Below are positions 35,545 to 53,689 of a DNA stretch of 64,000 bases, piece by piece (position 1 is the first letter of the stretch; every line of letters begins with the position of its first letter). Made by a program: the position numbers and the translations under genes. Source of the DNA: Phormidesmis sp. (GTDB lineage: Bacteria > Cyanobacteriota > Cyanobacteriia > Leptolyngbyales > Leptolyngbyaceae); NCBI GenBank assembly GCA_965248535.1, contig CBDFJR010000002.1:1728001-1792000 (forward strand), in the 5' to 3' direction. The notes below the pieces were generated by a model, which saw nothing but the letters and a program-made list of their open reading frames with translations, was not told the origin of the DNA and ran no database searches.

Positions 35545-37305
35545 TCAGCGGTCAAAGAATGCCGCGATCGATTGCTTTAAATATTCCAACTGAAAATATT
35601 CAAATAAGCGATCGCCAGAATCGGCTCTTACTAGCCCTAAAATCACCTCTGGCAGCGCCGCTCGACCCGGAAACACGAGATAGCGTGGCTCCCACTGTGG
35701 CTGAAATTTTTCCTTAAATTGATGCAGCCCTTTGAAGTTATAGAACTGGTTAAGGTGGTTAAACAGATAATTTAGAGCTTTCTCAACCCTGCGAGCAGTC
35801 GGCTTTGCGCCAACGCCTGCCAGGGGTGAAAGACTGAGATTAAAACTGTCGTATTTTGCCTCTTTAAAGTGTTGAAACATTGAGACAAACAAAAAATCCA
35901 TGGTGCCTTTTTCGGCATCTAATCGGTGACGCATTAGATCGATCGTCACTTCTCTGCGGTTATAGCCAGACAGCAAGTTTGCAAAAGCGACCACCTGATT
36001 GTCAGCATCATAGACGACGGCGATCAAGCAATCGCCCAAATAGTCTTCATCAAACCAGCCGATCGAAAACTGTTTTTCTGACCCTTGCTTGTCTTTTAGC
36101 CATTCGTCGCTGACGGGTTTTAGCTGCTGAAATAATTCTGGTGGAATCGGCGATTCATACAGGCTAAAACGGTAGCCTGCTTTGGCCGATCGATTCAGCG
36201 CTGTGCGGAGATTTTGCGCTGCTTTTCCTTTGAGGGTAAAGGTGGTTAAGTCTACGATCGCTTCTTCGCCGATTTGAATCTGCTGAAACCCTAGCTTAGA
36301 GTAGCGCTCTAGCTGATCGGTTGCGGTTTCATAAAAAGCGGGAAACCAGTCGTTGCGATCGCAAAATTGACTAAAGGTAAGAATTGCTTCGACCCGATCT
36401 TGCACCGGACCGATGGGATCGCCCAACGCGATCGCGGCTCGGCCTTTAGACACATAGGCGATCACACTTTGCCCAGACGGACTGAAATAGTAGCTCTTAT
36501 CTTTGAGCAACGCCAGCCGCGCTAGCGAGGTCTGCCCAGATTGGTCGATGATCTCTCTAGCGCGTCTACGATCGCTCACAGTTGCCGGAGCACCCCGCAG
36601 CAACACCGGCCGCAACAGCATGAACAATGCATAAATTAATGTGGTTGCACCGACAATATAAATAGAATTAATGAAAAACGCGCCATAGCGAGTGGTGGGT
36701 TCTAGCCCAGCGTTATCTTCAGTAAAAAAGATCGCTAACGTTTGCTCGATCGAGGCAAACAACCCAAAATTAATGGGTTCGCCATTGACTTTAAAGCGTC
36801 CATCCAGCACATAAAAGCCAGCCGTTCCATAGGCGATCGTAAACAGCAGTGCCCCAATCAAAACGCGAACGCCTTGAAAAATAGACGGGCGATCGGAGCG
36901 CGCCGTAAACGTTTTCCGCATCACGATGAGTTGGATGAGAGGCACGATCGCAAACAAGCCTTCTTCATAGTCCAGCCCTTTGATCAGATGGCTGGCGATC
37001 GAGAGTCCCAGCAGAGCCACCGTCAGCACCCAGGCCACATGCTTACGTCGTAAAAGATTGGCAGACAGCGTGAGCAGCAAAAAGCCCGTCAGTGCCGCAA
37101 AGACGTGCCCCCCCGCTCGAATCGGAAAGGGGAAAACAGGCATGAGCCATCTGACCCGTTCGGGGAGGCTGGGTGACACCGCCGACAATACATTCACTAA
37201 GCCGACTAAGCCCGTCCAGATCGAGACAGTCCATAGCGCGATGCGAGTTCGATGTTTTAGCCCGATCGACATGGGCTTAGGTTTGGGCCGCTCCTGTGCG
37301 CTCAT
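35545..37305 (-). CDS. MprF/DUF2156-type aminoacyl-phosphatidylglycerol synthase-like protein (short form, no full flippase domain)
   Basis: ~6 TM, then ALGDPIG, IGEEA, DLMRH, FYNFKGLHQFKEKFQPQWEPRYL. Confidence 0.88.
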   Translation of the reverse strand: MSAQERPKPKPMSIGLKHRTRIALWTVSIWTGLVGLVNVLSAVSPSLPERVRWLMPVFPFPIRAGGHVFAALTGFLLLTLSANLLRRKHVAWVLTVALLGLSIASHLIKGLDYEEGLFAIVPLIQLIVMRKTFTARSDRPSIFQGVRVLIGALLFTIAYGTAGFYVLDGRFKVNGEPINFGLFASIEQTLAIFFTEDNAGLEPTTRYGAFFINSIYIVGATTLIYALFMLLRPVLLRGAPATVSDRRRAREIIDQSGQTSLARLALLKDKSYYFSPSGQSVIAYVSKGRAAIALGDPIGPVQDRVEAILTFSQFCDRNDWFPAFYETATDQLERYSKLGFQQIQIGEEAIVDLTTFTLKGKAAQNLRTALNRSAKAGYRFSLYESPIPPELFQQLKPVSDEWLKDKQGSEKQFSIGWFDEDYLGDCLIAVVYDADNQVVAFANLLSGYNRREVTIDLMRHRLDAEKGTMDFLFVSMFQHFKEAKYDSFNLSLSPLAGVGAKPTARRVEKALNYLFNHLNQFYNFKGLHQFKEKFQPQWEPRYLVFPGRAALPEVILGLVRADSGDRLFEYFQLEYLKQSIAAFFDR

Positions 37306-38351
37306 TGGTTGGGTTCTCCCTGGGGTTGAGCGGTGGGTGCTGCTAAAGTCTTAGGCATCTCTGGCTGACGAGTTCCCTGGGTTACTGGCGGTTGCATGTC
37401 TGTTTTGGTTGCGGGAGGGGCATCAGCGGGCGATTTGGGAAGAGAAGCTCTAAATTGTTTGCCGACAAAGGTCAACGAGTCAGCTAAATGAGTGTGCCAA
37501 TAATTCCAGCCTACGTTTTTTCCGACGATCCCGTGTCCTCCAGGAAACACGTTGAATTGATTGGGAATGTTCAACTGATCAAGGGCTTGGTGAAACTGCT
37601 GAGTTGCCTGCAAATATTTAGCATCTTCTTTTCCTGCATCTAAGTACACCCGCAATTGAGGACGAATTTCTAGGGGAATTTGCTGAATAAACAGTTGAGG
37701 GCTGTTGTCTTCGCCACTATTATCTTTAAAGTAGCCCGTGTGGCTGAAGAGGATATGAAATTCATTGAGGTAGCGCAATCCAATATTCAACGCTCCCCAA
37801 CCGCCAGACGATAGCCCCCCGATCGCCCAAAATTGGGGTTCTCTAAGCGATCGATAGCGAGTTTTTACATCGTTGACCAGATCTGAGCCAATGAGGGTGG
37901 CCACTTTGCCGTTATCTCCGTCGTAGTATTGAGGATCCCATAATGGGCTACTGCCTCGATGGTCGTTGCCATCGGGTGTGATGATGATTGAGGGCGGAAG
38001 CTTACGATCGCGGTAAAGGTCATGCAGCACTGAGGTGAGGGCAGCTTTATCTTCAAAGTCTCGCTCGGTGCCGTGCCCTCCGTGCAGCAACACAATCACG
38101 GGATAGCGTCGATGGGGCTTTTTGCCATAACCAGGCGGCAGCACCACTCCATATCGCCGTTCACCACCCATTGCCTCGCTGTTAAACGTTTGGACTTTGA
38201 AGATCAGTCCTGTTTCTGGCTCGGCTTGCGGCGCGTCGATTTGAGGCGCACCTTCTATAAAAATATACCAATAGCCTGCGGCAGCTAAAGCCGTTAGACC
38301 GAGAGCACCGCCGATGATCAGGTTGCGATAGAGGTTTTTAGAACGCTTCAT
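37302..38351 (-). CDS. Membrane-anchored putative esterase (alpha/beta hydrolase)
   Basis: LPPGY, LLHG, GLSSGG nucleophile elbow, GGH; ATGA overlap with the MprF-like gene; start at MKRSK. Confidence 0.85.
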   Translation of the reverse strand: MKRSKNLYRNLIIGGALGLTALAAAGYWYIFIEGAPQIDAPQAEPETGLIFKVQTFNSEAMGGERRYGVVLPPGYGKKPHRRYPVIVLLHGGHGTERDFEDKAALTSVLHDLYRDRKLPPSIIITPDGNDHRGSSPLWDPQYYDGDNGKVATLIGSDLVNDVKTRYRSLREPQFWAIGGLSSGGWGALNIGLRYLNEFHILFSHTGYFKDNSGEDNSPQLFIQQIPLEIRPQLRVYLDAGKEDAKYLQATQQFHQALDQLNIPNQFNVFPGGHGIVGKNVGWNYWHTHLADSLTFVGKQFRASLPKSPADAPPATKTDMQPPVTQGTRQPEMPKTLAAPTAQPQGEPNQ

Positions 38352-38884
38352 GCAGAAAGAGACATAGCAAGACAGTTTGACCCATTTAGGATAGACGCAG
38401 TTTGCAGAAAATCTCAATCTGGCCTTGTCAGTTCATTTTTTGGGTACAGACTCAGGGTTTTTGGGCTTGGAGCGAGTTTTCTCAGACTCCTCAGCCTTCT
38501 ACGACGTGATGGTCTCGATTTGGGCACCCTAGTGCTAGACAGTCAGAGGCAAGTTTGGGGCAACTCTAACTGACTAACGAGATGAGTTTAGCGACTTATT
38601 CTGATGAGTGTCACCGTTGCTCTAGGGCTTTTTGCCTGCTTTATAAAGTGACAGAATTCATGAATAGAGCGGACGGGAAATCGGAATATTTGCTTCAGAG
38701 TAAACCCGTAGAACTACCGTGGCATGATCCCAGAGAGGATGTTAATTCTCTATAAAGACTAGAGACGCTTCCAAAACAAACCTTGACGACGCTGATGAGT
38801 TAACGACTTGAATCTTATCTGGATTTTTGAGTTAACTGATTGATCGAACGTCTCTTAAACAGTTAGTTCCTAAAGCATTGAGGC

Positions 38885-39520
38885 ATGACGATGAGCGAGA
38901 TTACTAAAGAAGAAGTCCGTGAAAAGCTCGGTAATATTGACCAAATTCGTGACATTATTTTTGGGTCACAAATTCGGGAATACGACAACCGCATCAGCAA
39001 GGTTGAGTCTGATCTCTTGATGGTGCAGCAAGACCTGCGCGATCGCCTTGAGCAGGTCAAAAACGGGGTTTCTATTGAGCTTAAAGCTGCCGTCGAAGCG
39101 ATAGAGAAAAAGCTGAAGCTGTTCAATTCTTCTTCTCAAGAAGAGTGTGCAGATTTACGGCAGCAGATCGATCGCGCCAATCGCAGATTTTCTAGCAGCA
39201 TCCAAGCGCTAGATGAAGCGTTAGATTCTCAAACTGCCTCGATTCGCAGCGACTTGGGTGACACCAAGAACAAGCTTCAAGACGATGCAGGAGCGCTAAG
39301 AGATTTGGTGTTAGGAGAACTCGATCGGCGGTTTTCTCAGTTAAGAGAGACAAAAGTCTCTAAAGATGACATCGCAGAAAGCTTGTTTGAGCTTGGAATG
39401 CGGCTAAAGGGAACAGAGTTTGTGCCTAAACTGCGAGAAGTTGCCAACAGCAGCCATCATACCTCTGTGCCTTTGTTAGAAACACGCAAATTTTCGGAAG
39501 AGTTGACTCATTCAACTTGA
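38885..39520 (+). CDS. Coiled-coil hypothetical protein
   Basis: IDQIRDIIFG…EY motif followed by heptads. Confidence 0.8.
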   Translation: MTMSEITKEEVREKLGNIDQIRDIIFGSQIREYDNRISKVESDLLMVQQDLRDRLEQVKNGVSIELKAAVEAIEKKLKLFNSSSQEECADLRQQIDRANRRFSSSIQALDEALDSQTASIRSDLGDTKNKLQDDAGALRDLVLGELDRRFSQLRETKVSKDDIAESLFELGMRLKGTEFVPKLREVANSSHHTSVPLLETRKFSEELTHST

Positions 39521-39559
39521 GGTTTCTTCCTCAAAATGGATTGCTATCAACCTTCTAAA

Positions 39560-39698
39560 TCTGCCATTTGTCACTGGTCGATAGCCTCCTACGCAAATCT
39601 GCCTCCTAAATCTCCTGATTCTGGAGGGCTTTGATTCCGGTTCCCTCAGAATTGGGGCTAGGTGGGCTTCCGACGATTCGCATTTGGTGAATGGCAGA
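39560..39698. repeat. MITE-like stem-loop repeat
   Basis: Ends TCTGCCATT…AATGGCAGA are inverted; internal CCTAAATCTCC…TTCTGGAGGG…CCCTCAGAATTGGGGCTAGG resembles the 12690 element. Confidence 0.5.
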
Positions 39699-39719
39699 CT
39701 GCGAATGCCGAACCCGTGA

Positions 39720-41948
39720 ATGAGCCTTGCCCCAACTATGGCTGAGACAAACGATCTTACCGTTGAGTCATCTCAATTTAGCCCGGCTGAAGTCGATCAG
39801 CTTGGGCGTTTTTTTGATCTGCTGGTTGACTTAGAAATCATTGATCTACCTGCAAAGTCTCTTGGCTCTGTTTTGGTTGATGCGATCGCGGCTGATGATT
39901 CTCTAGCTGCACCAGAGCCGGATCTGCCCGTTCAATTAGCTGACGCTCCTTTAGTTGCACCAGAACCAGATTTGCCCGTTCAACTTGAGTTCGGGGCGGC
40001 TCTCTGGGCTGACTCAACCGAGGCTGACTCAACCGAGATAGTGGCGATCGCACCGCCTGCTTTAGAGCCACCCGAAGATGCGGTGATGGCCCTAGATCTG
40101 CTGCGAGGGCTGGTGTTGGGGGCTGAAATGTCTGAGGTTCCTCAAAAACTGAGTCAACTAGAGCAACAGATCTATCAGCCCAATGAGTTAAAAAATCTGT
40201 TGCTGCCCTTGGTTGCAGAGCTTTTGCGTCAGACCGTGATCGACTCTCAAGAAGACGTTGTGCAAGCGATCGCGCCCATTATCGATCAAGTGATTCAAAG
40301 TCGAATGGATCACGATCGAGCCTTGATGGGTTTGGCCCTGGCTCCAGCAATTCCTGGGGCAATCACTGAGCAGATTCGCATTTCTCCTGAAGAGTTATCG
40401 ACGGCAATTTCGCCTGTGATAGGAAAAGCAATTCAAAAGCAGATCGTCATTGAGCAAAATACGATCGTCGATGCGCTATACCCCATCATTGGCGGCACGA
40501 TTTCTAAGTACATGGTGGAGACGATCCGAGCGATTAACCAGCAGGTTGAAGAAGCTCTCAGCCCCGCCGGAATTAAACGTAAAATTCGGGCAAAACTTCA
40601 GGGGGTTTCAGAGGCAGAACTCATTCTCAGAGAAGCGGCCCCTTTTACAGTGCAGGCCGTTTTTTTGATTCACAAAGGGTCGGGTTTGGTGATTTCAGAG
40701 ATCCAACGAACCGACAGCCAGCGACTAGAGTCCGACATGATTGCAGGAATGCTGACGGCAATTTGCAGCTTTGCCAATGACTGTATTTCTCAGGCTGGGG
40801 CTGTCTCAGAGCTAGACTCGATCGACTATGGCATGTCTAAAATCATTTTAGAAGTCGCTGGGCATTGCTATCTAGCGATCGTGATTCAAGGAGAGCCAAC
40901 GAAGCAATTTATTGAAGAAATTCGTCAAACACTCCGCAGTTTAGTGACTAACCATAGCACCGTGTTTGAGACATTTAATGGTGATCCTGACTCGGTGCCT
41001 AGTGCAGTCAACACGATTCTAGAATCGCTCAGAAACTCTAGTGCCCCAGACGAGAAATCGTCAGAAAATCGACCGTCTCCACTGGTGCTGATTGGCTTGG
41101 GCGTGTGCAGCTTAATTGCCATTCCATGGGGTTTTTTGCAGTATCGCGGTCATGTGAATCATCAGGCTGAAGTGACCACCACTGCTGCACTGTTATCGGC
41201 TCCAGAATTGGCGGTTTATCGGTTGATGGTGGAGGCTCACTCTGGCAAGCTCAAGTTAACTGGGCAGGTACCCAATCTTGAGTTGCGGCAGAAAGCAGAA
41301 CATCTTGCCACAATCGCCGCGCCCAAAAATTGGTCGATCGAGAACGATATTTTAGCGGTTGAGATTCCTCCAGATCCGGTTTTGACAGCGGCTGAGGTGC
41401 AGCGAGTCACGACTCTGTTTAATCGGATGGAGGGCGCTGCGATCGTAACTCGATACACAGAGGCTCAGATTTCAGTTGAGGGAAGCGTTCTTCGTCTGGC
41501 AGATGCCAAAACCATCACCCAAGGATTTCAGCGCATTCCGGGCGTGAAAGCTGTGTTTAGCACCGTGCAGGTGCAGCCATTAAAAATAGACTCTCGACTC
41601 TATTTTCCAACGGGTTCAGCCCTGTTAAACGCTGAGGATCTAAACAGCAAACTTCAGTCAGTCAAGTCTTTTCTTGATCTGCATTCTCAGACACCGTTGA
41701 AAATTATTGGCTATGGCAGTGCTAGCAATCGCCCGATCGCCGATCAAAAGCTGGCGCTTGAGCGTGCGATCGCGGTACGGACAGCCCTAATTGAACTGGG
41801 AGTTGCGCCCGATCGCTTGCAGGTCAGTGGGGCAGGGGGGTTGCCTCCGGGCATTGAGCCAACTCAACCTGATTGGCTGAGTCGATGCGTTGTGTTTGAA
41901 GTGATCCCTCCCAAACCAGGATCAAACCCATCAAATAAAGAAAGATAA
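39720..41948 (+). CDS. Membrane protein: helical repeats + alpha/beta domain + TM + BON-like + OmpA-like domain
   Basis: TM LVLIGLGVCSLIAIPWGF; KLTGQVP…IENDI (BON-like); YFPTGS…IIGY…LALERAIAV…L…GV…RL (OmpA-like). Confidence 0.85.
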   Translation: MSLAPTMAETNDLTVESSQFSPAEVDQLGRFFDLLVDLEIIDLPAKSLGSVLVDAIAADDSLAAPEPDLPVQLADAPLVAPEPDLPVQLEFGAALWADSTEADSTEIVAIAPPALEPPEDAVMALDLLRGLVLGAEMSEVPQKLSQLEQQIYQPNELKNLLLPLVAELLRQTVIDSQEDVVQAIAPIIDQVIQSRMDHDRALMGLALAPAIPGAITEQIRISPEELSTAISPVIGKAIQKQIVIEQNTIVDALYPIIGGTISKYMVETIRAINQQVEEALSPAGIKRKIRAKLQGVSEAELILREAAPFTVQAVFLIHKGSGLVISEIQRTDSQRLESDMIAGMLTAICSFANDCISQAGAVSELDSIDYGMSKIILEVAGHCYLAIVIQGEPTKQFIEEIRQTLRSLVTNHSTVFETFNGDPDSVPSAVNTILESLRNSSAPDEKSSENRPSPLVLIGLGVCSLIAIPWGFLQYRGHVNHQAEVTTTAALLSAPELAVYRLMVEAHSGKLKLTGQVPNLELRQKAEHLATIAAPKNWSIENDILAVEIPPDPVLTAAEVQRVTTLFNRMEGAAIVTRYTEAQISVEGSVLRLADAKTITQGFQRIPGVKAVFSTVQVQPLKIDSRLYFPTGSALLNAEDLNSKLQSVKSFLDLHSQTPLKIIGYGSASNRPIADQKLALERAIAVRTALIELGVAPDRLQVSGAGGLPPGIEPTQPDWLSRCVVFEVIPPKPGSNPSNKER

Positions 41949-42031
41949 ATTTCTGTTTATTTTAGCGACTTAATTGAGCATTCTTGTAGTGTGTTCTTTA
42001 GAGAGCGCACTTATCGAATTTGAAGTGGATA

Positions 42032-42562
42032 ATGTCTATAATTTCCAAAAAAGTGTGTTTAGTGGGTGACTTTGGGGTTGGTAAAACAAGTTTAATTCGT
42101 CAGTTTGTCGATCGCCAGTTCAGCGATCAATATCTTTCCACAGTGGGCGTTAAAATCTCTCGAAAGGCCATCGACGTTTTGAAGCCTAAATCACAGTTAA
42201 CTCAGAGTTTGCAGCTTTTAATTTGGGATCTTGAGGGCAACACTAAGTTTAAAGCGATTACTCCCAGTCATCTGCAAGGAGCGGCGGGGGTAATTATCGT
42301 GGGAGACGTGACTCGATCGGAAACTCTAGATCACCTATCTGGGCATATCCAGAGTTTTTTAGCCATAAATTCTCAGGGGGCGATCGTGCTGGCCCTAAAC
42401 AAGTCAGATTTGATTCAAGAAGAAGATCTAGACGTTTTGCTAAAACGACACTATGGAGATCAACCAAACCTCTTGGGCATTTATCCTACCTCGGCAAAAA
42501 CGGGAAATAATGTTAACCAAATTTTTGAAATCTTATCTCAAAAGCTAGTCGAATCACTATGA
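42032..42562 (+). CDS. Rab-like small GTPase
   Basis: G1 GDFGVGKTS, G2 YLSTVG, G3 WDLEG, G4 NKSD, G5 TSAK. Confidence 0.93.
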   Translation: MSIISKKVCLVGDFGVGKTSLIRQFVDRQFSDQYLSTVGVKISRKAIDVLKPKSQLTQSLQLLIWDLEGNTKFKAITPSHLQGAAGVIIVGDVTRSETLDHLSGHIQSFLAINSQGAIVLALNKSDLIQEEDLDVLLKRHYGDQPNLLGIYPTSAKTGNNVNQIFEILSQKLVESL

Positions 42563-42732: not shown

Positions 42733-45123
42733 ATGACTCTTTCTTCTGACCTTAATCGTCTGTGTCTCTTTAGTAAACTTTTAACGTCTCGATCTATCGA
42801 ATATCTGATCGTAGATCAAGAGTTAAAGATTAATGAAACCTCTGCTGGGGCACATCGATATGTCCAATCACCGAGTGATGTAGCACCCGGAAGAGATGTT
42901 CGTGATAGTTTTCCTGAGCTATATGGCTATGAAGAGACTCTCAATGATGTCTTGCAAAAACGGCAAGAGAGACTTGACATTACAGAAATTGCCCGATCGC
43001 TGACGCGCAGCGCTGAAGGGTCATTAGACTTGCCGACCCTTGTTTATATCGATCTCCATATTCTCGAAAATCAGTCTCTTGAAAATAGCTTTGTGATCTT
43101 GATAGAAGAGATTACAGAAGCGATGGTTTTGAGACAATCCCTCGTTCAAGCTGCCAATGAAGCGAATCTTTTATTGAGACAATTAGGGGCTTCTAAGAAA
43201 TATACCGATCAGATTATTACCGCTATCCCTGATGCCTTGATCGTGACAACGCGATCGGGAAAAATTAAAACAATTAATCCGGCTGCAAAAATTCTGTTTG
43301 AATACACAGAAGACGAGCTGCTGGGGCAACCGATTTCAAGTCTTCTTTCAGAGTTGCAGTTTCCCTATCCTACGATCGCTCAAAGTCCTCAAGCTTCAGA
43401 GTCTAGTGAACTTCCTAAAGAAATTGAAACCGTCTGTCAAACAAAGTCAGGTAAAAAAGTCTCGATCGCTGTTTCTTGCTCGACTCCACAGGTAGATATC
43501 GAAGACTTTCAAAGTGTGGTTTATATCGTTCGAGATATGACCGATCGCAAGCAAGCAGAACTGGCAAAACGTGAGTTTTTAGCCATGATTAGTCATGAAA
43601 TTCGCACCCCGATGAATGCTGTCATTGGCATTGCTGGCTTATTGCTAAACACTGAGCTAACGCCTCAACAGCGCGACTTGATAGAAATCATTGGAACCAG
43701 TGGCGATGCACTGCTCACGATCATCAATGACATTCTCGACTTTTCTAAAATGGAGTCTAACAAACTGGAGTTAGAAGAACACCCGTTTAATCTTAGAACT
43801 TGTGTTCAAGAAGCGCTGAATCTACTCACGCCCAAAGCGGTAGAAAAAGGACTCAAGCTTGCCTTTATTGCTGACGCGACTCTGCCGACGCTCGTCGTCG
43901 GAGACAGCACTCGACTTCGCCAAATTTTGATTAACTTACTCGGCAATGCCATCAAGTTTACGCCAACCGGAGAAGTGACAATATCCGCAACGGCCGTGTC
44001 AATCACGCCTACTCCCCAATCGACGCTCCTTTGCGGCATTGAGTTTGCAGTTAAAGATACAGGCATCGGAATCTCCCACGATCGCCGCAATTGTCTATTT
44101 CAAGCCTTTAGTCAGGTAGATGCCTCGATTACCCGGCAATATGGTGGCACGGGGTTGGGGCTGGCGATTTGTAAACAACTCAGCAACCAAATGGGCGGGA
44201 AAATCTGGGTTGAAAGTGAGCCAGGGCAAGGCAGCACGTTTTACTTTACGATCGTGGTCGAAGCGCCTTCTGAACCCGCCATCCCAGAGAGCACACGTCC
44301 TCGACTGTCAGTAGATACTCAGTTTGCTCAACAACATCCTCTGCACATTTTGTTGGCTGAAGATCATCTAGTTAATCAAAAGCTGATGGTGATGGTCTTG
44401 CAGCAGTTAGGCTATCAAATTGATGTGGTCAACAACGGCTTAGAAGTTTTAGACGCTCAACGCAAACAGCCCTATGATGTGATTTTGATGGATGTGCAGA
44501 TGCCCGAAATGGATGGCATCACGGCTACGCAACAAATTTGCCAAACTTGGGCACCGGACGATCGTCCCTACATCATTGCCATGACGGCTAATGCCCTGCG
44601 AGACGATCGTCAACGTTGCCTAGAATCGGGCATGGACGACTATATTACCAAACCCGTCTGCCTAGAAGCGTTAATGCAAGTGTTAAGCAAATGCAAGCCT
44701 CATAGACGTGCTCAGACCCAAGCCCAGCCAGAAAACACCTCCGATTTACATCTCGAATTAGCGCCTCAGACAGTGCGAATTGATTTAGATGCGCTGCAAG
44801 AAATCTATCAAATTGGCGGAAACTCGACAGAATTTTTGGTAGAGATGATTGACTGCTATCTCGAAGAAGCTCCTAAGCTTTTGAAAGCCGCAAGAGATAG
44901 TCTGCTCCAACAAGACCTTATAAAGTTGAAACGAACTGCTCACACGCTGCAATCGAGTAGTGCAACGCTGGGTGCAACAAAACTAGCAATGCTGTGTATA
45001 GAGCTTGAGTCAATGGTCATGACCGATTCACTAACGGCAGCCGCCCATCACGTTGCAGCGCTAGAACTAGAGTATCAGGAAGTAGAAACTGTTTTGCAGC
45101 AAGAACGCCAAAAGCTTCTATAA
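42733..45123 (+). CDS. Hybrid histidine kinase PAS-HisKA-HATPase-REC-Hpt
   Basis: [36 protein letters not shown]. Confidence 0.95.
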
Positions 45124-45249: not shown

Positions 45250-46410
45250 ATGACAACCTTTTTTAGGGATCAGGTTTTTTTTGAGACCCGATCGCGTCAG
45301 ACGTTAAACCTGCGATCGTCTCAACGGGCTTGGGCCGTTCTCTGGCGTTTGGCAAAGCCCCTTATTGGCAGTGTGAGCCTGTGTCTCAGCGCTGTCTACC
45401 CAGTTCAATCCGTCCCTAAAATTCCTGTCTCAAATTCGGCTAAGTTTTTGATTGCTGGGGCAGATAACTTTAACCCTGGCTTAGAGTTGTTGCCCGTCAA
45501 ACCAGAGCAGCCTAGTTCAGCTAGGGATCTGATAGAAGCGCCATCTCCTAAAGTGGGACTAGAAAGCCTGAAAACTGACTTTCGCAACGATCGAGACAGT
45601 TCAGGTCAGCGGAATCGATTTCTGGGCGAAACGGCTCAGTTTCGCTTAAAAAATGGCAACATGGTTCAGTTTAAAACAGGGTTGAATTCCTTTAAGCAAA
45701 CGGGAGCAGAATCTGTCATTAATAGTCCGCTTCAAGTGGGCTGGGAGGGCAAACTTGGTCATTTTAAGGTGCGCGCAGAGGGCGGCGTTGACCTATTTGA
45801 TCGGTTGCCTGTCGCCCCTAACTTTAGCATTGAAGCCAGTGTTCCTATTTTGCCTAACGCTACGTTATCAGCAGTGTTAGAGAAATCGCCTTATAAGTTT
45901 AATGCTAAAACGCTCAATCATCAAATCTCAGCATTGCGGTTTGGGCCAACGTTGTATGTGCAAATCGATCGCAACACGAGTTTATTTTCTTTTTATCGTC
46001 GAGGCAACTACAGCGACGGCAATCACGAACATCAGTCTTTTACGAGACTAGAACATAAATTTGGACAGTTTTCTGTGTCAGCTAATCTATTCACTTGGAA
46101 CTACGAACACAACGCGCTGGATCGAAAGGGATATTTTTCTCCTCAAGATTTCTTGGTCTATAACGGCGAAATTGGTTGGGAGGGAGATGTGTTTAAGTTT
46201 CTGCGATGCGGACTCACTGCCTCCTTGGGGCGGCAACGGCTAAAGGGTGATTTCTCGAATGCAAACACCTATCAAGCTCACTGCATGGCTCAGGTATCCC
46301 CTCATGTGGAAGCAGGCTTGGGTTACACCTTTAGCAATGTCAAAACTCAAGGCACAGGAGATAGTTCCAATAGTCAGGCGCTGACAGGTCAACTACGCAT
46401 TACGTTTTAG
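45250..46410 (+). CDS. Outer-membrane beta-barrel protein (BcsC C-terminal-like export pore candidate)
   Basis: Alternating beta pattern, YSDGN and GYFSP motifs, terminal F. Confidence 0.7.
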   Translation: MTTFFRDQVFFETRSRQTLNLRSSQRAWAVLWRLAKPLIGSVSLCLSAVYPVQSVPKIPVSNSAKFLIAGADNFNPGLELLPVKPEQPSSARDLIEAPSPKVGLESLKTDFRNDRDSSGQRNRFLGETAQFRLKNGNMVQFKTGLNSFKQTGAESVINSPLQVGWEGKLGHFKVRAEGGVDLFDRLPVAPNFSIEASVPILPNATLSAVLEKSPYKFNAKTLNHQISALRFGPTLYVQIDRNTSLFSFYRRGNYSDGNHEHQSFTRLEHKFGQFSVSANLFTWNYEHNALDRKGYFSPQDFLVYNGEIGWEGDVFKFLRCGLTASLGRQRLKGDFSNANTYQAHCMAQVSPHVEAGLGYTFSNVKTQGTGDSSNSQALTGQLRITF

Positions 46411-46557
46411 CATCGGGATGTGAATCTTAGGATTAATATCACGTTGATTTCAGTGTTTGTATGAAAACGATTGAGTTAAATCGCATCTAACAGCGTTTTC
46501 AGACCATTGGCGGGAACACTAGACATAATCGTTAACAACAAAATCAAGAGCTAGCTC

Positions 46558-48882
46558 ATGAATTCTGATTTTGAGCCACCACCAAAGGGATGGTCAATTC
46601 TAGCTTCTGTCGGCGGAGTAATCACTGCGATCGCAGTTGTGACCAGTCTAGAATCGCTGTCAAGTTACTTTCATAGAACAGATTCTGCATCCGTGTCGAA
46701 AGCGGCAATGATCACGCAGCGCGAATCAGAGCGATTGCTAGATCACACAGTCGAGCAGCAAGCGGCTGCCTGCAAATTTAACCAAAGTATGGCCCCCGAT
46801 CGGGGGATCAAGTTTGAGACTAAAACGTTTCTTAGCCAAGCGATGGGGCAAGTGCGTAGCTATGGTGTGGTGCTGCCTCCCGGCTATGATCAAACGTCTC
46901 AAAAGCGTTACCCGGTGATTTTCTTACTGCACGGCGGGCACGGAGATGCAGGTGGATGGCAAACCTGCGCAGCGATTACCGAAGTGCTGCATAAACTCTA
47001 TAGCAACGGCAAGCTTCCACCTGCAATTATCATCACACCCGATGGCAACGATCGCCGAGGATCAAGTGCCCGCTGGGACCCTGAATATTTTGACGGGGTG
47101 AATGGACGAGTCGCTACCCTAATTGGCTCTGACCTAGTGCAAGAGGTGAAATCGCAGTATCAAGTGCTGAATGATCCCGAATTTTGGGCGATCGGAGGGT
47201 TGTCTTCGGGCGGCTGGGGCGCTTTGAATATTGGGCTGCGCTATGGGGATCAGTTCCACCTTTTGTTTAGCCATAGCGGTTACTTTACTGATGTTAGTGG
47301 GCCCGAAAATAGCCCCGCTGAGTTAGTGCAAAAAATTCCGGCTGAACAACAACAGCAGCTAAAAATTTATTTGGATGCAGGCGCTTCTGACAAACGATTT
47401 TTAGACTCTACTGAGCAATTCCACAAAGTTCTTCAGCGCTTGTCGATCGAGCATGAGTTTCATATGTTCACAGGAGGACATGGCACGACGGGTCAAGACA
47501 GTGGCTGGCGTTATTGGCATGAACATCTAGCTGACTCATTGAGCTATGTCGGCTCTAAATGGCTTGGCAATAGCATAGCTATGTCGCCCGTGGAGAGGGC
47601 TAGTTTAGATGCTCAATTTGCAAAGGTGCTTGACAAAGGGATGGGCGCAAAACCGTCTGAGGTGAAGGTGCAAAATGGGGGTGAGGCTAAAATGTTGACC
47701 GCACAAGAGCTTCAAACAGCACGTCTAGCTTGGAAATATTTTCAGCGCAACTGGAATGAGAAGACGGGCTTGATTAATTCGGCTGATGACTTTGCATCGG
47801 TAACGTTGTGGGATCAGGCTGCCGCGATCGCCGCGATCGTCAGCGCTAGAGAACTCGATTTGATTTCAGACGTAGAGTTCAACGCCAAAATGAATGGGAT
47901 GTTAACCACATTGGCAACGCTGCCCCTCTACAAAAATGAGTTGCCCAACAAAGTTTATAACACCGAAACGCTGCTACCCGTGGATTATGGAGAGTTAACT
48001 AAACGCAAGGAGATTGGTTGGTCAGCGATCGACCTAGGACGTATGGCGCTCTGGCTTAAAATTGTGGGTTCAAAATATCCTCAGTTGCGGACTCAAACAG
48101 AGGCGGTTTGGCAACACTGGAAGGTCGAGCGATTGGTTAAAAATGGGCAACTGTATGGAACAACAGTCAGCGCCCGCGGCGATGGAACAGTCCAGACTAA
48201 AGAACAATATAACCAAGAAGGACGCTTGGGCTATGAAAACTATGCGGCTTATGGGTTAAAGCTGTGGGGCTTAGATGTCAAACAAGCGCTTGATACTCAG
48301 TCAAATGTGGCATTTGTCAATCTCTATGGGCAGGATGTTCCTTATGACCAGCGAGACTATCAGACCTCAGGAGCCAACAATTATGTTCTTAGTGAGCCTT
48401 ATATCTTAGACGGCATTGAGACAGGGTTTCAGGCATTGCCTAAAGCCTATGCCGATCGCGTGTTAGCGGCTCAAGAAGCTCGCTATCAGGCAACCAAACA
48501 GTTGACGGCGATTACTGAAGATAACCTCGATCGTGCGCCTTATTTTGTCTATAACACGCTGTTTGTCAATGGTGAATCTTGGGCAACCATCACCGACACG
48601 CGCCAAAATCGCAACAATCTGCGGTTTCTCAGTGCAAAAGCGGCGATCGGTTGGCACGTTCTCTATAACACGGCTTATACTCAACAACTATTTGAGTTTG
48701 TTCAAGCCAAGCTAAAAAGCGAAACAGGCTGGTACAACGGTTTCTATGAATCTCTGAATCAGCCTAACCGATCGCTGACCGCAAACAACAATGGCGTGAT
48801 TTTAGAAAGTCTGCTCTACAAAAAAGTTGGGCAGCCTCTCACCGTTTGGGCAGGCATTCCATCCTCTGAGCAACCTCATTAA
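46558..48882 (+). CDS. Esterase + DUF3131 fusion protein
   Basis: N-terminal TM; GLSSGG esterase domain; AWKYF, LPNKVYN, GWSAIDLGR, QEGRLGYE, NNNGVILE. Confidence 0.85.
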   Translation: MNSDFEPPPKGWSILASVGGVITAIAVVTSLESLSSYFHRTDSASVSKAAMITQRESERLLDHTVEQQAAACKFNQSMAPDRGIKFETKTFLSQAMGQVRSYGVVLPPGYDQTSQKRYPVIFLLHGGHGDAGGWQTCAAITEVLHKLYSNGKLPPAIIITPDGNDRRGSSARWDPEYFDGVNGRVATLIGSDLVQEVKSQYQVLNDPEFWAIGGLSSGGWGALNIGLRYGDQFHLLFSHSGYFTDVSGPENSPAELVQKIPAEQQQQLKIYLDAGASDKRFLDSTEQFHKVLQRLSIEHEFHMFTGGHGTTGQDSGWRYWHEHLADSLSYVGSKWLGNSIAMSPVERASLDAQFAKVLDKGMGAKPSEVKVQNGGEAKMLTAQELQTARLAWKYFQRNWNEKTGLINSADDFASVTLWDQAAAIAAIVSARELDLISDVEFNAKMNGMLTTLATLPLYKNELPNKVYNTETLLPVDYGELTKRKEIGWSAIDLGRMALWLKIVGSKYPQLRTQTEAVWQHWKVERLVKNGQLYGTTVSARGDGTVQTKEQYNQEGRLGYENYAAYGLKLWGLDVKQALDTQSNVAFVNLYGQDVPYDQRDYQTSGANNYVLSEPYILDGIETGFQALPKAYADRVLAAQEARYQATKQLTAITEDNLDRAPYFVYNTLFVNGESWATITDTRQNRNNLRFLSAKAAIGWHVLYNTAYTQQLFEFVQAKLKSETGWYNGFYESLNQPNRSLTANNNGVILESLLYKKVGQPLTVWAGIPSSEQPH

Positions 48883-48884
48883 TC

Positions 48885-51563
48885 ATGCAGCACTACCATC
48901 AGCCAAATTGGGTTAGGTCGATTGCCCTGTTTCTAGTCGGGGTCAGTCTTCAGTTTTTGTTCCATGCGTCTACACCCGCCTCAACCGTTGCTCAACCGCC
49001 GGGTATGATCCCTAGCAATCAGTGCGCTGAGTTGCTTGCACCGCTGACTTCTGAAGAAGAAGGCTATGCTCGAACGGCCTGGCAATACTTCCTCAACAAT
49101 TATCAGACCACAACTGGGTTTACTAACTCTGTTGGAAATTATCCTTCTGGCTCAATGTGGGATATGGGAAACTATTTGATGGCATTGAATGCTGCGCGCT
49201 GGCTGAATCTGATTAACCAGGCAGACTTTGACAATCGCCTCAACAAGTTTTTGACCACCCTCAGCGGACTGAAACTGTTTGATAATGCTCTGCCCAACAA
49301 AACCTATAATGCGGCAACTGGAGAATTGGTGGACTATGGCAACAAAGCTGTAGAACGAGGCATCGGTTGGTCGGCGCTAGATATGGGACGAATGCTGTCA
49401 GCGTTTCACGTCATCCGCACTTGTCATCCTCAATATAACGATTGGCTCAAAGGCATTGTGGCGAAGTGGAAGCTGGCAGACTCGATTCGAGATGGGCAAC
49501 TCTATGGGGCGATCGTGACTCCAGAGGGCAAAACTCAACTAGTTCAAGAGGGGCGGCTGGGCTATGAAGAGTATGCGGTGAGAGGCTATGAGCTTTGGGG
49601 CTTTAAGGCAGACAAAGCACGATCGCTTCAGCCCTATAAATTTGTTGATCTCTACGGAATTCAAATTCCTGTTGACAGTCGCGATTTTCAAAACTCAGGT
49701 GCCAACAATTATGTAGTCAGTGAGTCCTATATCCTAGACGGAATTGAGTTTGGTTTGCAGGGCGACATGGCAGATTATGCTTCTAGAGTCCTAGAGGTTC
49801 AAAAGCGGCGCTATGAAACCACTCAACAGTTAACGGCCGTCTCAGAAGATAACCTCGACGGCCCGCCCTACTTCATTTACAACACAGTCTATGCCAATGG
49901 GGTGCCTTGGGCAGCCATCACAGATGCAAACCAGCCTTATCCACAGTTTCGCAACATTAGCACTAAGGCGGCCTTTGGCTGGCGCTATTTGTTCCCGACT
50001 AACGACTATGCTCAAAAGGTCTTTGATGCCGTCAAAACTTTGCGGAGTGACGATGGCGGCGGCTTCTTGGCGGGACTCTATGAAGAATCGAAGCAGCCCA
50101 ACAAAACTTTAACAGGCAATACTAATGGCTTGATTTTGGAGATTTTGTACTACAAAGCTAGAGGGAACCGATCGCTGATAGGCGGTACTCCTTCGACGTT
50201 GACCCAGATTGCTCCGATCGTGGCTGTTGGCACTCCACAGCCTTCGCCCAATTCTGCGCTCAGTCAGCCTTTGTCAGAAACAGAACGCCGCTCTGCTCAG
50301 GCTGCGTGGCAATACTTTAAAACCAACACTCAAGCCACTGGGTTAGTCAACGATCGTAGTGATTTCAAAGGTGCATCGCTCTGGGGCATCGGAGATTATC
50401 TTGCAGCCCTGCACGCAGCGCGATCGCTCGATATCATTTCGGGTCAAGAATTTGAGCAGCGAGTTCGGCAGAGTTTGAGCACGATCGAGCACTTGCCTCT
50501 CTTCGCCGGAGAGTTGCCCAATCGCGGCTATGATCCCTGGTCGCTGCAACCTGTTGATTATGGCGACAACCCAACACTGGATGGAACAGGCTGGTCAGCT
50601 TTAGATGTGGGTCGATTGTTGTCAGCTTTATATAATCTCAAAACAGGTCATCCTGAATATGCTGCCGCCGTTGATCGCATTCCCCTTGATTGGTCTTATC
50701 TGCGAGTTGTGCGCGATCAGAGATTGTTTAGCGCCAAAGTGAGTCGAGATAGCCGCGGGCGATCGCTGACCCGGTTAGTTCCAGAAACTCGCCTGGGCTA
50801 TGAAGAATATGCCGCCCGCGCTTTACAGCTTTGGGGATTTGACGTTGATCGGGCCACGATCGGAGGACATTATCAAACCCTATCGATCGCAGGCATAGAG
50901 GTGCCGACTCAGCGCCAGCGATCGGGCCGCAACCCAGACCCCAATCTCCACACTGTCAGCAATCCTTTTTTACTCTATGGTTTAGAGTTTGGCTTTGATC
51001 CACAGATGCGATCGCTGGTTCAGCCCCTTCTCAAGGCGCAGGCAGAGCGCTATCGCACCACCCATACTCTCACGGCTGCGGCAACCACCGTAATTGACCG
51101 CCCTCCCTACGTGATTCACAGCACGATCGTGGGTCAAGGCGAACCTTGGGCAACGCTAGCAGATGATGGTCGATCAGTTCCCGATCTGCGAATGGTCAGC
51201 ACCTCTGCTGCCTTTGCTTACCATGCCTTGTTTCCGACTGAGCCATATACTCAGGCATTGCGGGCAGCGATCATAGACCTAGCTAATCCCTCCCAGGGCT
51301 ACCCAGAGGGTCGTGATGAAAAAACTGGCAAGGCGGCTACGGTGTTCACGGCTGAGACAAACAGCCTGATTTTGCAATCTATTTTGTATCAAGCCACGCG
51401 GCAGCAGCCGTTGACCCAATCTACCCCAGCGCTCAATTCTCCTTGGTGGGAAGCATTAACCAAAGGAGACTTCGATCGAGGGTTGCCCAAAGTCACTCAA
51501 CAAACGGCCCAACGGGTCACGGATGACACCGGAACCTATTGGACTTCGACCCGGCACAAATAA
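48885..51563 (+). CDS. Tandem DUF3131 domain protein
   Basis: Two copies of AWQYF…LPN…GWSALD.GR…RLGYEEY; signal/TM at N-terminus. Confidence 0.87.
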   Translation: MQHYHQPNWVRSIALFLVGVSLQFLFHASTPASTVAQPPGMIPSNQCAELLAPLTSEEEGYARTAWQYFLNNYQTTTGFTNSVGNYPSGSMWDMGNYLMALNAARWLNLINQADFDNRLNKFLTTLSGLKLFDNALPNKTYNAATGELVDYGNKAVERGIGWSALDMGRMLSAFHVIRTCHPQYNDWLKGIVAKWKLADSIRDGQLYGAIVTPEGKTQLVQEGRLGYEEYAVRGYELWGFKADKARSLQPYKFVDLYGIQIPVDSRDFQNSGANNYVVSESYILDGIEFGLQGDMADYASRVLEVQKRRYETTQQLTAVSEDNLDGPPYFIYNTVYANGVPWAAITDANQPYPQFRNISTKAAFGWRYLFPTNDYAQKVFDAVKTLRSDDGGGFLAGLYEESKQPNKTLTGNTNGLILEILYYKARGNRSLIGGTPSTLTQIAPIVAVGTPQPSPNSALSQPLSETERRSAQAAWQYFKTNTQATGLVNDRSDFKGASLWGIGDYLAALHAARSLDIISGQEFEQRVRQSLSTIEHLPLFAGELPNRGYDPWSLQPVDYGDNPTLDGTGWSALDVGRLLSALYNLKTGHPEYAAAVDRIPLDWSYLRVVRDQRLFSAKVSRDSRGRSLTRLVPETRLGYEEYAARALQLWGFDVDRATIGGHYQTLSIAGIEVPTQRQRSGRNPDPNLHTVSNPFLLYGLEFGFDPQMRSLVQPLLKAQAERYRTTHTLTAAATTVIDRPPYVIHSTIVGQGEPWATLADDGRSVPDLRMVSTSAAFAYHALFPTEPYTQALRAAIIDLANPSQGYPEGRDEKTGKAATVFTAETNSLILQSILYQATRQQPLTQSTPALNSPWWEALTKGDFDRGLPKVTQQTAQRVTDDTGTYWTSTRHK

Positions 51564-51626
51564 GGGCAGGACTGGCTCCTACTGTTGCCCTCACTCCCAT
51601 CTGTCACGTTCACCTACCAAACTGGT

Positions 51627-53624
51627 ATGACTACACCCACCGCTATTGTCGAAAATTTTCCGGCGTTCTCTGGCAACCTGCGATCGCGACTCAAAGAACG
51701 AACCCTGCTTTTTCGCTACCTGGCTGAGATCAACCTGATTCTCGGAGCGTGGTATTTGCAATGGCGGATCGGTCATTCAATTAACTTCAGTGCGTTGTGG
51801 TTAGCAATCCCCCTTCTGTTGACAGAAATTTATAGCTATGTTGGCGGAGTCATGTTCACGATCGGACTCTGGCGACCCCTAGTGCGTCAGGTCAAATCGC
51901 TAGATCAGTTAACCCCGCCGTTACGTCGCGCCGATTGGTCAACGGTTGATGTTTTTGTCACCTGCTGCGGTGAGTCGCCCCAACTCGTTGAGCAAACCAC
52001 GCGAGCAGCGTTAGCGATCGACTATCCCGCGACTAAACTGCGCGTTTATGTCTTAGATGATGGAAACTCGCCTGAAATTCGGGCGGTCGCTCAAAAGCTA
52101 GGAATGGAGGATCTCCAGTCGCCGTTGCTGCAAACTGAGATCCAGCGAATTAAAACGGAGCGATCGCACCTGATTGAGCAATTGGAACAACTCAAACATT
52201 TAGCGTCTGATATTGAAGCGGCCGAACAATTATTGCAAACCTCACCCGGTGACAATGGCGCTCTAGAGGCGTTGCAGTCGCTTGAAAAATTGGTGCTGCT
52301 GTTAAGCCCCAATCATTTGAGTATGCACGATCGCCTCAACTCTGAACAACTCAAGATTGAAGCCGCGATCCATCAAAAAGAACTAGAGCTAACTGAACTT
52401 GTGCGCTGTCACTATATTGCTCGACCCAAGTCTGCGGGCAAGCCCCATCATGCTAAAGCAGGCAACATTAACTACGCTATCTTTTCAGGAGAAACCACTG
52501 GAGACTTCATTCTGACGCTGGATGCTGATCATATTTGCAAGCCGCAGTTTCTCAAGCGAGTGTTGCCCTACTTTTACACCTGCAACCCCCAGACAGGGCG
52601 CTACGAGAACAACCGCATTGGCTTTGTGCAAACGCCCCAAGACTTCTATAATCTCCCGTCGGGTGATCCCTTTGGGCATCAAGCACACTTGTTCTACGGC
52701 CCGATTCAACAAGGCAAAGACGGACTCAACTCAGCATTTTATACAGGCACCAATGCGGTTTTGAGACGAGAAGCGCTCGTCAGTGTCGGGCTGAAATATT
52801 TTTCAGAAGCGTTTGCAAAAGACGAAACTCGCCTAGACGAATTTGAGTTGATTGGCGGAATGTCTAGCAGCAGCATCACCGAAGATATGAACACGGCGAT
52901 GCGACTGCATGGGGCAGGGTGGCGATCGGTCTATCACAGTGAACTGTTGGCAGTCGGGCTAGCGCCTGATGATCTTAGCTCTACGCTCAAACAGCGACTG
53001 CGCTGGGCCCAGGGCACTATTCAGGTGTTGCTCCAAGAAAATCCTTGGAAGAAACCAGGGCTGAGTTTTTGGCAGCGACTCCAATATTTTCAGACAATGT
53101 ATAGCTATTTTTCTGGGTTTGCTACCCTGATTTTTATTGCTTGCCCAATCCTCTACTTTTTTTCAGGGGTGATTCCGGTCAGCGCCTATGGCAATGACTT
53201 TGCGCTGCACTTTTTTCCGGCGTTTGTGGTGAATCGATTGACGTTTATGGCTGCCACTTGGGGCATTCCGGCTAGTGAGGTCTGGCGCTCTGAGCAGTAT
53301 GCGATCGCGCTATTTCCCCTGTTTATTCAAGCGGTCTGGAGTGTTTTCACGAACCGCCCCATCAAATTTCAGGTTACGCCAAAGCAGAGACAATCAGGGG
53401 TTTATCTAAAACTGGTTTTGCCCCAAGTGTTGATCTTTGGTCTAACGATTTTAGGACTGGGGTGGAGTTTATTGTTATTGACAATGGGCAAATTGCAAGA
53501 TCCCTGGATTCACCTGCTTAACAGCGCTTGGGCAATTTATAATCTGACCCTTTTGTGGGCAGTGATTCGGGCGGCTGTGTGGCAGCCTAAATTAAGTGTC
53601 GGCGCGATCGAGCAATTCGATTAG
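51627..53624 (+). CDS. Cellulose synthase-like processive GT2
   Basis: DDG, HAKAGN, DAD, QTPQ, TED, QRLRW, FQVTPK; flanking TM helices; no PilZ domain. Confidence 0.93.
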   Translation: MTTPTAIVENFPAFSGNLRSRLKERTLLFRYLAEINLILGAWYLQWRIGHSINFSALWLAIPLLLTEIYSYVGGVMFTIGLWRPLVRQVKSLDQLTPPLRRADWSTVDVFVTCCGESPQLVEQTTRAALAIDYPATKLRVYVLDDGNSPEIRAVAQKLGMEDLQSPLLQTEIQRIKTERSHLIEQLEQLKHLASDIEAAEQLLQTSPGDNGALEALQSLEKLVLLLSPNHLSMHDRLNSEQLKIEAAIHQKELELTELVRCHYIARPKSAGKPHHAKAGNINYAIFSGETTGDFILTLDADHICKPQFLKRVLPYFYTCNPQTGRYENNRIGFVQTPQDFYNLPSGDPFGHQAHLFYGPIQQGKDGLNSAFYTGTNAVLRREALVSVGLKYFSEAFAKDETRLDEFELIGGMSSSSITEDMNTAMRLHGAGWRSVYHSELLAVGLAPDDLSSTLKQRLRWAQGTIQVLLQENPWKKPGLSFWQRLQYFQTMYSYFSGFATLIFIACPILYFFSGVIPVSAYGNDFALHFFPAFVVNRLTFMAATWGIPASEVWRSEQYAIALFPLFIQAVWSVFTNRPIKFQVTPKQRQSGVYLKLVLPQVLIFGLTILGLGWSLLLLTMGKLQDPWIHLLNSAWAIYNLTLLWAVIRAAVWQPKLSVGAIEQFD

Positions 53625-53689
53625 TCTCGCCTATCTGCTGGGTACACTAATCGAAGTCTAAAGTTATTCAAATTACTGGGTTTATTCTC

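Follow-up and report, generated by a model that had tools for sequence, protein, structure and literature searches.

Which partner controls a bacterial Rab-like GTPase that carries neither the glutamine of Ras and Rab proteins in its G3 motif nor a cysteine tail at its C-terminus? The question is raised by a locus of Phormidesmis sp. (Cyanobacteriota; assembly GCA_965248535.1, contig CBDFJR010000002.1, positions 1,728,001 to 1,792,000 of the forward strand); this whole stretch of 64,000 nucleotides is called the window, and all coordinates refer to it. Its open reading frames (ORFs) and their Pfam matches revealed a unit of four genes on the plus strand, coding for a coiled-coil or helical cytoplasmic protein (38885..39520, 211 amino acids (aa)), a single-pass inner-membrane protein (39720..41948, 742 aa; from Pfam, hydropathy and AlphaFold2), a Rup GTPase of the Ras superfamily, Rab-like in type (42032..42562, ATG start, 176 aa; from Pfam and PDB matches), and a hybrid histidine kinase, the output gene of the cassette (42733..45123, 796 aa; from Pfam, AlphaFold2 and homolog counts).

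The cassette is a member of the Group 1 Rup system, known from a computational survey (Wuichet and Sogaard-Andersen, 2014; PMC4316618). There, Group 1 Rup GTPases were described as lacking the G3 Gln and as lying in the neighbourhood DUFY>DUFX:OmpA>Rup>output, with the order DUFY>DUFX:OmpA>Rup found in cyanobacteria, Mesorhizobium and others; the all3030 region of Nostoc PCC 7120 is one of the entries in its table. Of six Group 1 features the five that were tested were all found here, the assignment being one by layout and motifs: a single G domain of 150-240 aa with Ras-like G1-G5 (176 aa), no Gln after DxxG (Asn70), an adjoining coiled-coil cytoplasmic gene or DUFY (38885-39520, without a transmembrane (TM) segment), an adjoining DUFX-TM-OmpA gene (with a homolog beside a Rab-family GTPase in Mesorhizobium, a genus of the 2014 table), and an output protein with an N-terminal Gln (Gln139, which we infer to be the Gln of that paper). 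In the 2014 account the Gln of the output kinase or cyclase is invariant and was speculated to act in trans, 0/121 Rup-clade proteins were coupled to MglB homologs, and DUFX was left as a domain of unknown function. Our literature search, for which subscription literature was mostly outside reach, found neither a fold assignment for DUFX nor an experimental test of a Rup system. What is new here is the predicted longin fold of DUFX. In the reading that we prefer, and hold with belief and doubt in about equal parts, the longin domain docks the unlipidated Rup and promotes its loading with GTP, and Rup-GTP then acts on a PAS-Gln module at the head of the kinase.

Predicted Structure of the Longin-Fold Domain

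The part of the membrane protein that precedes its TM helix (40641..41033, plus strand, residues 308-438) is predicted to have a longin fold. AlphaFold2 returned a model with a predicted local distance difference test score (pLDDT) of 88.1 and a predicted template modelling score of 0.84, in which the elements follow the longin order and the C-terminal helix reaches a pLDDT of about 93. Foldseek ranked Mon1-Ccz1, MglB, Ragulator and TRAPP at the top (best E 6e-5), with TM-scores of 0.65-0.66 for longins versus 0.47-0.58 for roadblocks. VIA-align was run twice, against 48,161 chains without Foldseek preselection and then against the top 1000 of Foldseek. In the first run the VAMP7 longin scored Z 12.2 (122 residues aligned, root-mean-square deviation (rmsd) 3.9), CPLANE 12.1 (126, 3.1), Sec22 11.8 (121, 2.6), TRAPP chain 3cue_C 11.6 (126, 3.0) and an Asgard roadblock 11.6 (103, 2.0), the top entries being tied within 1 Z; the 50 matches listed, judged by their titles or by the complexes to which they belong, were all of longin/roadblock type. 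In the second run TRAPP chain 2j3t_D came first (Z 13.3; 126, 2.7), followed by VAMP7 (12.9; 125, 3.6), Sec22b (12.5; 122, 2.6), the Fuzzy-Inturned-Rab23 entry (12.3; 124, 2.8) and Ykt6 (12.2; 121, 2.5), with the best roadblock at 11.6 (103, 2.1) and MglB at 11.3 (107, 2.2). Alignments to longins ran through the last helix, to model residue 141-143, and those to roadblocks ended at 108-118. Therefore, the longin order is favoured over the roadblock order, the match to longins extending over the whole predicted domain, last helix included (Z 11.6-13.3 over 121-126 residues). The initial annotation had guessed a longin/roadblock-type domain and had named AlphaFold and Foldseek as the check; the longin/roadblock-type matches of this confident model bear the guess out and narrow it to the longin order. 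ESM Atlas matches of the domain fell below the 0.9 lead level and were not used, whether the first ones (0.81-0.82, unnamed archaeal clusters) or one of 0.76 to a cluster named Roadblock/LAMTOR2, with Fuz_longin_1 on 22% of its members.

Conservation of Helix Alpha1

An alignment of 173 domains showed that conservation is concentrated in helix alpha1 (40731..40796, plus strand, residues 338-359), which bears the near-invariant motif [GAS]-M-L-T-A-I-x-x-F-x-x-D. The conservation was 0.81 in the alpha1 core and 0.78 in beta1, compared with 0.40-0.46 in beta2, beta3, alpha2 and alpha3. Position 343 was G, A or S in 173/173 domains, A347 was kept in 172/173, and M344, F351 and G322 were each found in 173/173. 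No Arg, Gln or Asn was invariant within the domain in the homolog alignment. Since alpha1 is the conserved face and such residues are missing, a platform or guanine nucleotide exchange factor (GEF) is a better fit than a catalytic GTPase-activating protein (GAP); a catalytic GAP role is also less likely because a near-invariant Gln is found in the output gene. Cys349 of alpha1 (codon 40764-40766) is rare, the position being Arg or Gln in 166/173 rows and Cys also in P0005.

The GTPase surface of Mon1-Ccz1 and TRAPP is made up of the paired alpha1 helices, and mutation of G250/T254 and G232 of Mon1 or G106/G110 of Ccz1, with bulky residues placed at small i/i+4 positions, abolished exchange (PMC5216073, accessible part). 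The small residues 343/347 together with Gly322 parallel these residues, the equivalence being one of position and not of superposition. By this analogy alpha1 would be the dimerisation and GTPase-docking face. It must be noted that longin/roadblock domains have been described as platforms rather than catalysts (PMC3747258).

Gene Linkage and Distribution

Loci were picked by similarity to the domain and are kin, so that the counts below express constancy and not independent events. In the GTDB sample (best 80 of 122 matches to the domain) the GTPase was found in 80/80 loci, the PAS-Gln homolog in 77/80 and the coiled-coil gene in 74/80. The initial annotation had drawn a unit of three genes; these genes stand, and its extent has to be widened, as the frequency of the PAS-Gln homolog shows that the kinase also belongs to it. 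The same layout recurs in a second clade, which shares about 27% identity in the domain and comes from other cyanobacteria, rhizobial plasmids and metagenomes. The metagenome sample of this clade (best 80 of 564) had the GTPase in 55/80 loci, or in 55/57 once loci with less than 600 bases downstream and no GTPase were set aside, and a coiled-coil homolog in 73/80. The same four genes were found in Mesorhizobium. In nearly all loci the GTPase was the next gene after the membrane protein.

This constancy bears on an alternative in which the longin domain is a scaffold that binds either the PAS module or the coiled-coil protein, with the PAS-Gln module alone regulating the GTPase. Many of the top fold matches are longins that pair with proteins other than GTPases (see also PMC10933270), the Gln of the PAS helix is the single near-invariant polar residue that would suit catalysis, and the conservation of alpha1 could mean dimerisation alone. 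We nevertheless consider this alternative unlikely, given a GTPase that has no membrane anchor (Cys within the last five residues in 3/146 GTPase ORFs) and is so regularly the next gene, and small i/i+4 residues on alpha1 that suit a close partner surface. A docking domain that acts on Rup is thus preferred. The correlation of tree distances between domain and GTPase (r 0.54, n=25; r 0.30, n=42) was rejected as evidence of binding, being expected from co-inheritance.

With regard to distribution, the domain occurs in 38/251 genomes of the phylum, counting the present one, and in 0/2 others of its own family; it matched 3570 representatives at 50% identity clustering (E<=0.001). A further genome survey, meant for other phyla, proved again to be cyanobacterial (67/401 with the domain, many loci being shared with the survey of 251 genomes), and the range in other phyla is therefore based on the plasmid matches, the metagenome loci and the accessible part of the 2014 table (PMC4316618). 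A search for short stand-alone relatives of the domain gave 183 matches, of which the 120 listed look, from name and coverage, like fragments of the same family. A putative longin-Rup fusion in locus L114 was rejected, its linker reading as off-frame GC-rich sequence after the TM helix. Additionally, L015, L016 and L086 each have more than one Rup gene or cassettes in tandem, both clades are present in some genomes, and L050, a record titled as Rhizobium, carries a cassette of the cyanobacterial clade, while the survey centred on its genome (G301) gave a cyanobacterial sample; its title may be wrong.

The Rup GTPase

The GTPase was matched by the Ras family of Pfam (E 3e-28); its best PDB matches are Rabs, the best solved relative being Rab14 (E 1e-24), and it was the sole match to its own sequence in the genome. 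The initial annotation had read five G motifs, a WDLEGN without Gln and no Cys tail, and the 176-aa translation agrees on every point: G1 is GDFGVGKT (residues 12-19), G2 T37, G3 WDLEGN (65-70), G4 NKSD (123-126) and G5 SAK (154-156), and the protein ends in KLVESL, without the prenylated C-terminal cysteines of the Rab family. Asn70 stands where Ras and Rab carry Gln. Among 141 homologs this position was His in 54, Glu in 41, Ser in 21 and Gln in 16, and the loss of the G3 Gln is thus typical, not absolute (125/141). Asn70 itself (codon 42239-42241) is rare, with 1/141. Phe14 was kept in 132 of these homologs and Tyr34 in 140. Phe14 aligns with a Met of the Rab14 P-loop and is at what we take to be the position of Ras Gly12, where bulk presumably hinders arginine-finger GAPs. 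Positions 35-36 are L/H/Q and S/T, and most Rup homologs have no Arg beside G2.

These motifs have to be set against a second alternative, according to which the domain acts as a GAP in the manner of MglB and marks a place in the cell: fixed to the wall, it would clear Rup-GTP from one site and so set a polarity axis. MglB is among the top fold matches (Foldseek E 1e-4; Z 11.3), and it stimulates hydrolysis without donating a catalytic residue (PMC3747258), with which the missing invariant Arg or Gln of the domain is compatible. However, MglB works by positioning the Arg and Gln of MglA itself (PMC4316618), and most Rup proteins have neither the G3 Gln nor an Arg beside G2. In addition, the fourth gene codes for a diffusible signalling output, and inspection by eye of the sequences, without a scan, recognised no recurrent motility or division gene in the 14 neighbour clusters that recur most often in loci L001-L083. 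We therefore regard an MglB-like role as improbable. The trans-envelope landmark proposed in the initial annotation is likewise unsupported, with a fourth gene that is a signalling output and a wall-binding part that is dispensable in some members.

The Hybrid Kinase and Its PAS-Gln Module

The kinase has the domain order PAS-Gln module, PAS, HisKA, HATPase, REC and Hpt (Pfam and model). Residues 1-156 (42733..43200, plus strand) were modelled as a PAS fold and a long helix (pLDDT 90.1), the top Foldseek matches being PAS/LOV domains (best E 5e-6), and the helix bears the near-invariant Gln139 (codon 43147-43149). Three PAS-Gln subfamilies follow Rup and all align on one Gln, which was kept in 67/69, 20/20 and 19/22 of their rows. 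In profile comparison to the subfamily of the window, subfamily A gave a probability of 94% (E 1.6e-7) and subfamily B weak values of 10% and 59%; the A and B sets were hand-picked and hold 42/55 downstream ORFs, the 13 left out being 10 unlike the module and 3 of the subfamily of the window. A scan of 34 downstream proteins showed the module at the N-terminus of histidine kinases, adenylate/guanylate cyclases, GGDEF proteins, HD-type proteins and sigma-54 activators. Because a constant N-terminus sits on exchangeable outputs, the module resembles an effector-docking domain, and it would be the part that binds Rup. Stand-alone PAS-Gln proteins of about 133 aa were found directly after Rup in five loci (L087:8135-8536, L088:7945-8346, L089:4294-4692, L090:7952-8353 and L092:7933-8331); in most cases a kinase that bears a second PAS-Gln subfamily comes next. 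These stand-alone proteins are good candidates for a minimal GAP or effector.

The Envelope Part of the Membrane Protein and DUFY

The membrane protein consists, in this order, of an acidic N-terminus, 23-residue helical repeats, the longin-fold domain, the TM helix, a BON domain and an OmpA-like domain. The TM helix (41082..41138, plus strand, about residues 455-473, hydropathy 2.29) is the sole hydrophobic segment. It was located after the domain in 253/256 homologs, with a mean of 3.5 Lys plus Arg before it and 2.0 after it. Since the TM helix follows the domain and basic residues are richer on its N-terminal side, the domain should be cytoplasmic and the helix oriented N-in/C-out, which would make the BON domain periplasmic. 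BON (41181..41309, plus strand, residues 488-530) was found by Pfam PF04972 (E 4.6e-6, 27.3 bits for a cut-off of 27) and the OmpA-like peptidoglycan-binding domain (41601..41840, plus strand, residues 628-707) by PF00691 (E 4.2e-12); the single TM helix followed by BON and OmpA, as first annotated, is thus confirmed. In the OmpA-like domain Arg682 is retained, as in 239/242 homologs; this position and position 667 are presumably those involved in peptidoglycan binding. Rhizobial homologs (L081:6458-9523 and L082:6458-9523) have long tandem periplasmic repeats between the TM helix and OmpA, and their relatives measure 749, 885 and 1021 aa, in steps of 136. Among homologs that end at the TM helix, Rup still adjoins in 3/4 loci (L129, L145, L154 and L156).

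A third alternative reads the cassette inside-out: the kinase or cyclase would control Rup, and Rup would switch the grip of the membrane protein on the wall, for envelope tethering or remodelling. BON and OmpA-like domains are structural envelope modules, and glucan-synthesis genes lie near the cassette in the window and in a few relatives. We hold this reading to be very unlikely, because five unrelated output chemistries all have the PAS-Gln module at their N-terminus, in the position of an input domain, and members without the periplasmic part retain both GTPase and output. The direction that we prefer is from the envelope, through Rup, to the kinase.

Four 23-residue A-x-x-P repeats (40266..40514, plus strand, residues 183-265) precede the longin domain; homologs have up to 12 matches to the motif (P0124 and P0151 among them), spaced mostly by multiples of 23. 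They may be a spacer or a binding site for the coiled-coil protein. A short direct repeat in the acidic N-terminus (39900-39990) encodes APEPDLPVQL twice. As for DUFY, Pfam gave only sub-cutoff helical matches, on which look-alikes the coiled-coil label is based, a hydropathy scan found no hydrophobic segment, and the ESM Atlas matches were limited to unnamed cyanobacterial clusters. The homolog alignment revealed a conserved N-terminal motif around R22-G27, R36 and E41.

Proposed Mechanism and Its Significance

According to the preferred reading, two longin domains would dimerise, and their paired alpha1 helices would form a platform by analogy with TRAPP and Mon1-Ccz1, which would recruit Rup to the inner membrane in place of the lipid anchor used by Rabs. 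The dimer would likely load Rup with GTP according to the condition of the wall or envelope, which BON and OmpA would sense. Rup alone would hydrolyse GTP slowly, owing to Phe14 and the missing G3 Gln, and Rup-GTP would bind the PAS-Gln module as its effector and switch the kinase. The module may also supply its Gln in trans and so end the signal, as was speculated in 2014 (PMC4316618), and the coiled-coil protein would bridge or space the parts. The predicted fold, the constant gene linkage and the conservation of alpha1 together argue well for a domain that regulates the GTPase.

Several observations weigh against this account. With regard to the fold, profiles built from 49 and 57 sequences found no longin or roadblock similarity in the PDB at E<=10, only chance matches; Pfam gave Fuz_longin_1 in only 1 of 49 domain members (E 0.18), Robl_LC7 in 0/49 at E<=1, and no longin/roadblock family, Robl_LC7 included, in the whole membrane protein beyond chance matches. 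Common descent with longins is therefore not established, since sequence homology to described longin families was not detected. The model shows no N-terminal helix, and because the construct started at residue 301, within a conserved and possibly helical stretch, a roadblock-type N-terminal helix is possible; Mon1, in the accessible part of PMC5216073, has an extra helix ahead of a true longin. Many of the best structural matches, among them VAMP7, Sec22b, Ykt6 and adaptor subunits, do not act as GEFs, and MglB, the nearest precedent from bacteria, works as a GAP. With regard to the switch, dimer packing alone could produce the conservation seen in alpha1, the binding and catalytic steps are all inferential and dimerisation is assumed. 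The switch I lysine of Ypt7 that Mon1-Ccz1 uses (PMC5216073) corresponds to Rup position 35, which is Leu, His or Gln, and a Gln in trans is not needed in all members, as 16/141 GTPases retain their own. With regard to the envelope input, the OmpA-like domain has Ser667 where 118/242 homologs carry Asp, four similar homologs of 338-340 aa stop at the TM helix and have no periplasmic part, and in the 2014 table (PMC4316618) members from Bacteroidetes and Chloroflexi were entered without OmpA, while DUFX stands without OmpA in ten of 26 rows. The wall tether is thus not universal.

In a bolder version, which we think rather doubtful, DUFX would be a genuine longin GEF of bacteria that acts on Rup as its Rab-like substrate. 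The two would form a switch homologous to TRAPP and Mon1-Ccz1 that operates in ordinary bacteria as an envelope receptor with a single membrane pass, the Gln of the PAS module serving as GAP in trans. If it were so, the pairing of longin and Rab would predate both eukaryotes and Asgard archaea, and its first use would have been in two-component and second-messenger signalling. Rup has been described as the prokaryotic group closest to Rab/Ras/Rho/Ran (PMC4915359), and a bacterial longin tied to a Rab-like GTPase bears on the origin of eukaryotic Rab regulation. Rup was previously without a named regulator; a partner with a predicted longin fold, fixed by gene order, is a concrete candidate GEF, and the PAS-Gln module is a candidate effector or GAP. 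Three small soluble proteins would therefore suffice to test the cycle as a whole. This is tempered by the fact that the cassette was already catalogued and that bacterial longin/roadblock-like folds are known in bulk, as far as the accessible sources tell, and what goes beyond fold and linkage stays conditional.

Genomic Setting of the Cassette

The G+C content of the cassette was 46.6%, versus 50.4% for the genome, and a scan for promoters and terminators gave signals at or below the level of shuffled sequence. Downstream (45250-60971) the window holds a BcsC-like gene, an esterase-DUF3131 gene, a tandem DUF3131 gene, a cellulose-synthase-like GT2 gene, STAS, REC-PP2C and RsbW-like kinase genes and a GAF-CHASE3 hybrid kinase. 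This downstream set of BcsC-like, two DUF3131, GT2, RsbU/RsbW/STAS-type and GAF-CHASE3 kinase genes, was found in whole or in most part around the cassette in 4/11 wider records, which are close kin (G217, G189, G243 and a Nostoc flagelliforme plasmid); its gene order differs in G217, G189, G243 and L083. For this subclade alone, these findings point to a shared island and perhaps to a connection with glucan synthesis. Glucan-synthesis genes were rejected as a core part of the cassette, being present in 1 locus among those with flanks of 5-8 kb and in 4/11 wider records. On the minus strand (35545-38417) there are a gene with a phosphatidylglycerol lysyltransferase C-terminal domain and an esterase gene; the latter resembles the N-terminal half of 46558-48882.

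Comparison with Known Systems

The closest system is the Group 1 Rup of 2014, with which the cassette shares a GTPase without the G3 Gln, DUFY, DUFX-TM-OmpA and a Gln-headed output kinase or cyclase. Beyond the accessible part of that account are the predicted longin fold of DUFX, the predicted PAS fold of the output N-terminus, and outputs that also include adenylate cyclases, HD-type and sigma-54 proteins. MglA-MglB and the actinobacterial conservons are alike in that a bacterial small GTPase is encoded with a partner of the longin/roadblock superfamily, and conservons also have a link to histidine kinases (PMC4316618). Nevertheless, MglB is a free small protein of roadblock order, whereas the domain here has the predicted longin order and is part of a membrane protein, and Group 1 MglA has TVPGQ and an intrinsic Arg (PMC4316618), whereas Rup has DxxG without either. 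A Ras gene beside a peptidoglycan-binding gene has been mentioned in a Thiomargarita preprint, with no fold given in its accessible part.

The eukaryotic longin Rab GEFs (TRAPP Bet5/Trs23, Mon1-Ccz1 and Fuzzy-Inturned) resemble DUFX in predicted fold and element order (Z 10.8-13.3) and in the conserved alpha1 face, and a Rab-like GTPase is the gene neighbour here. They differ in that the domain is only 8-14% identical to them and has no hidden Markov model link; that there is one longin gene per cassette, giving a homodimer at best, anchored by TM helix and wall; that the GTPase is unprenylated and lacks the switch I lysine; and that the output is two-component or second-messenger signalling and not vesicle traffic. 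Longin domains were stated to be absent from prokaryotes in a 2013 review (PMC3747258), and the accessible part of PMC3521125 derives them from MglB-like domains in eukaryotes. Longins of Asgard archaea are known (PMC10933270, PMC4917890 and 10.1101/2020.10.19.343400, accessible parts), including fusions to two-component domains (10.1101/2020.10.19.343400). According to the accessible part of a 2026 preprint, 48% of annotated longin/roadblock signature proteins fall into clusters that span all four lineages, and that of another preprint places profilin-longin-like domains beside GTPases across life. An Asgard longin (PDB 8yqg) matched the predicted domain with Z 10.5 (128 aligned, rmsd 3.3) as a prokaryotic longin fold; the GTPase genes of MK-D1 generally lie outside longin operons (PMC10933270), whereas in the cassette described here the pairing is fixed by gene order.

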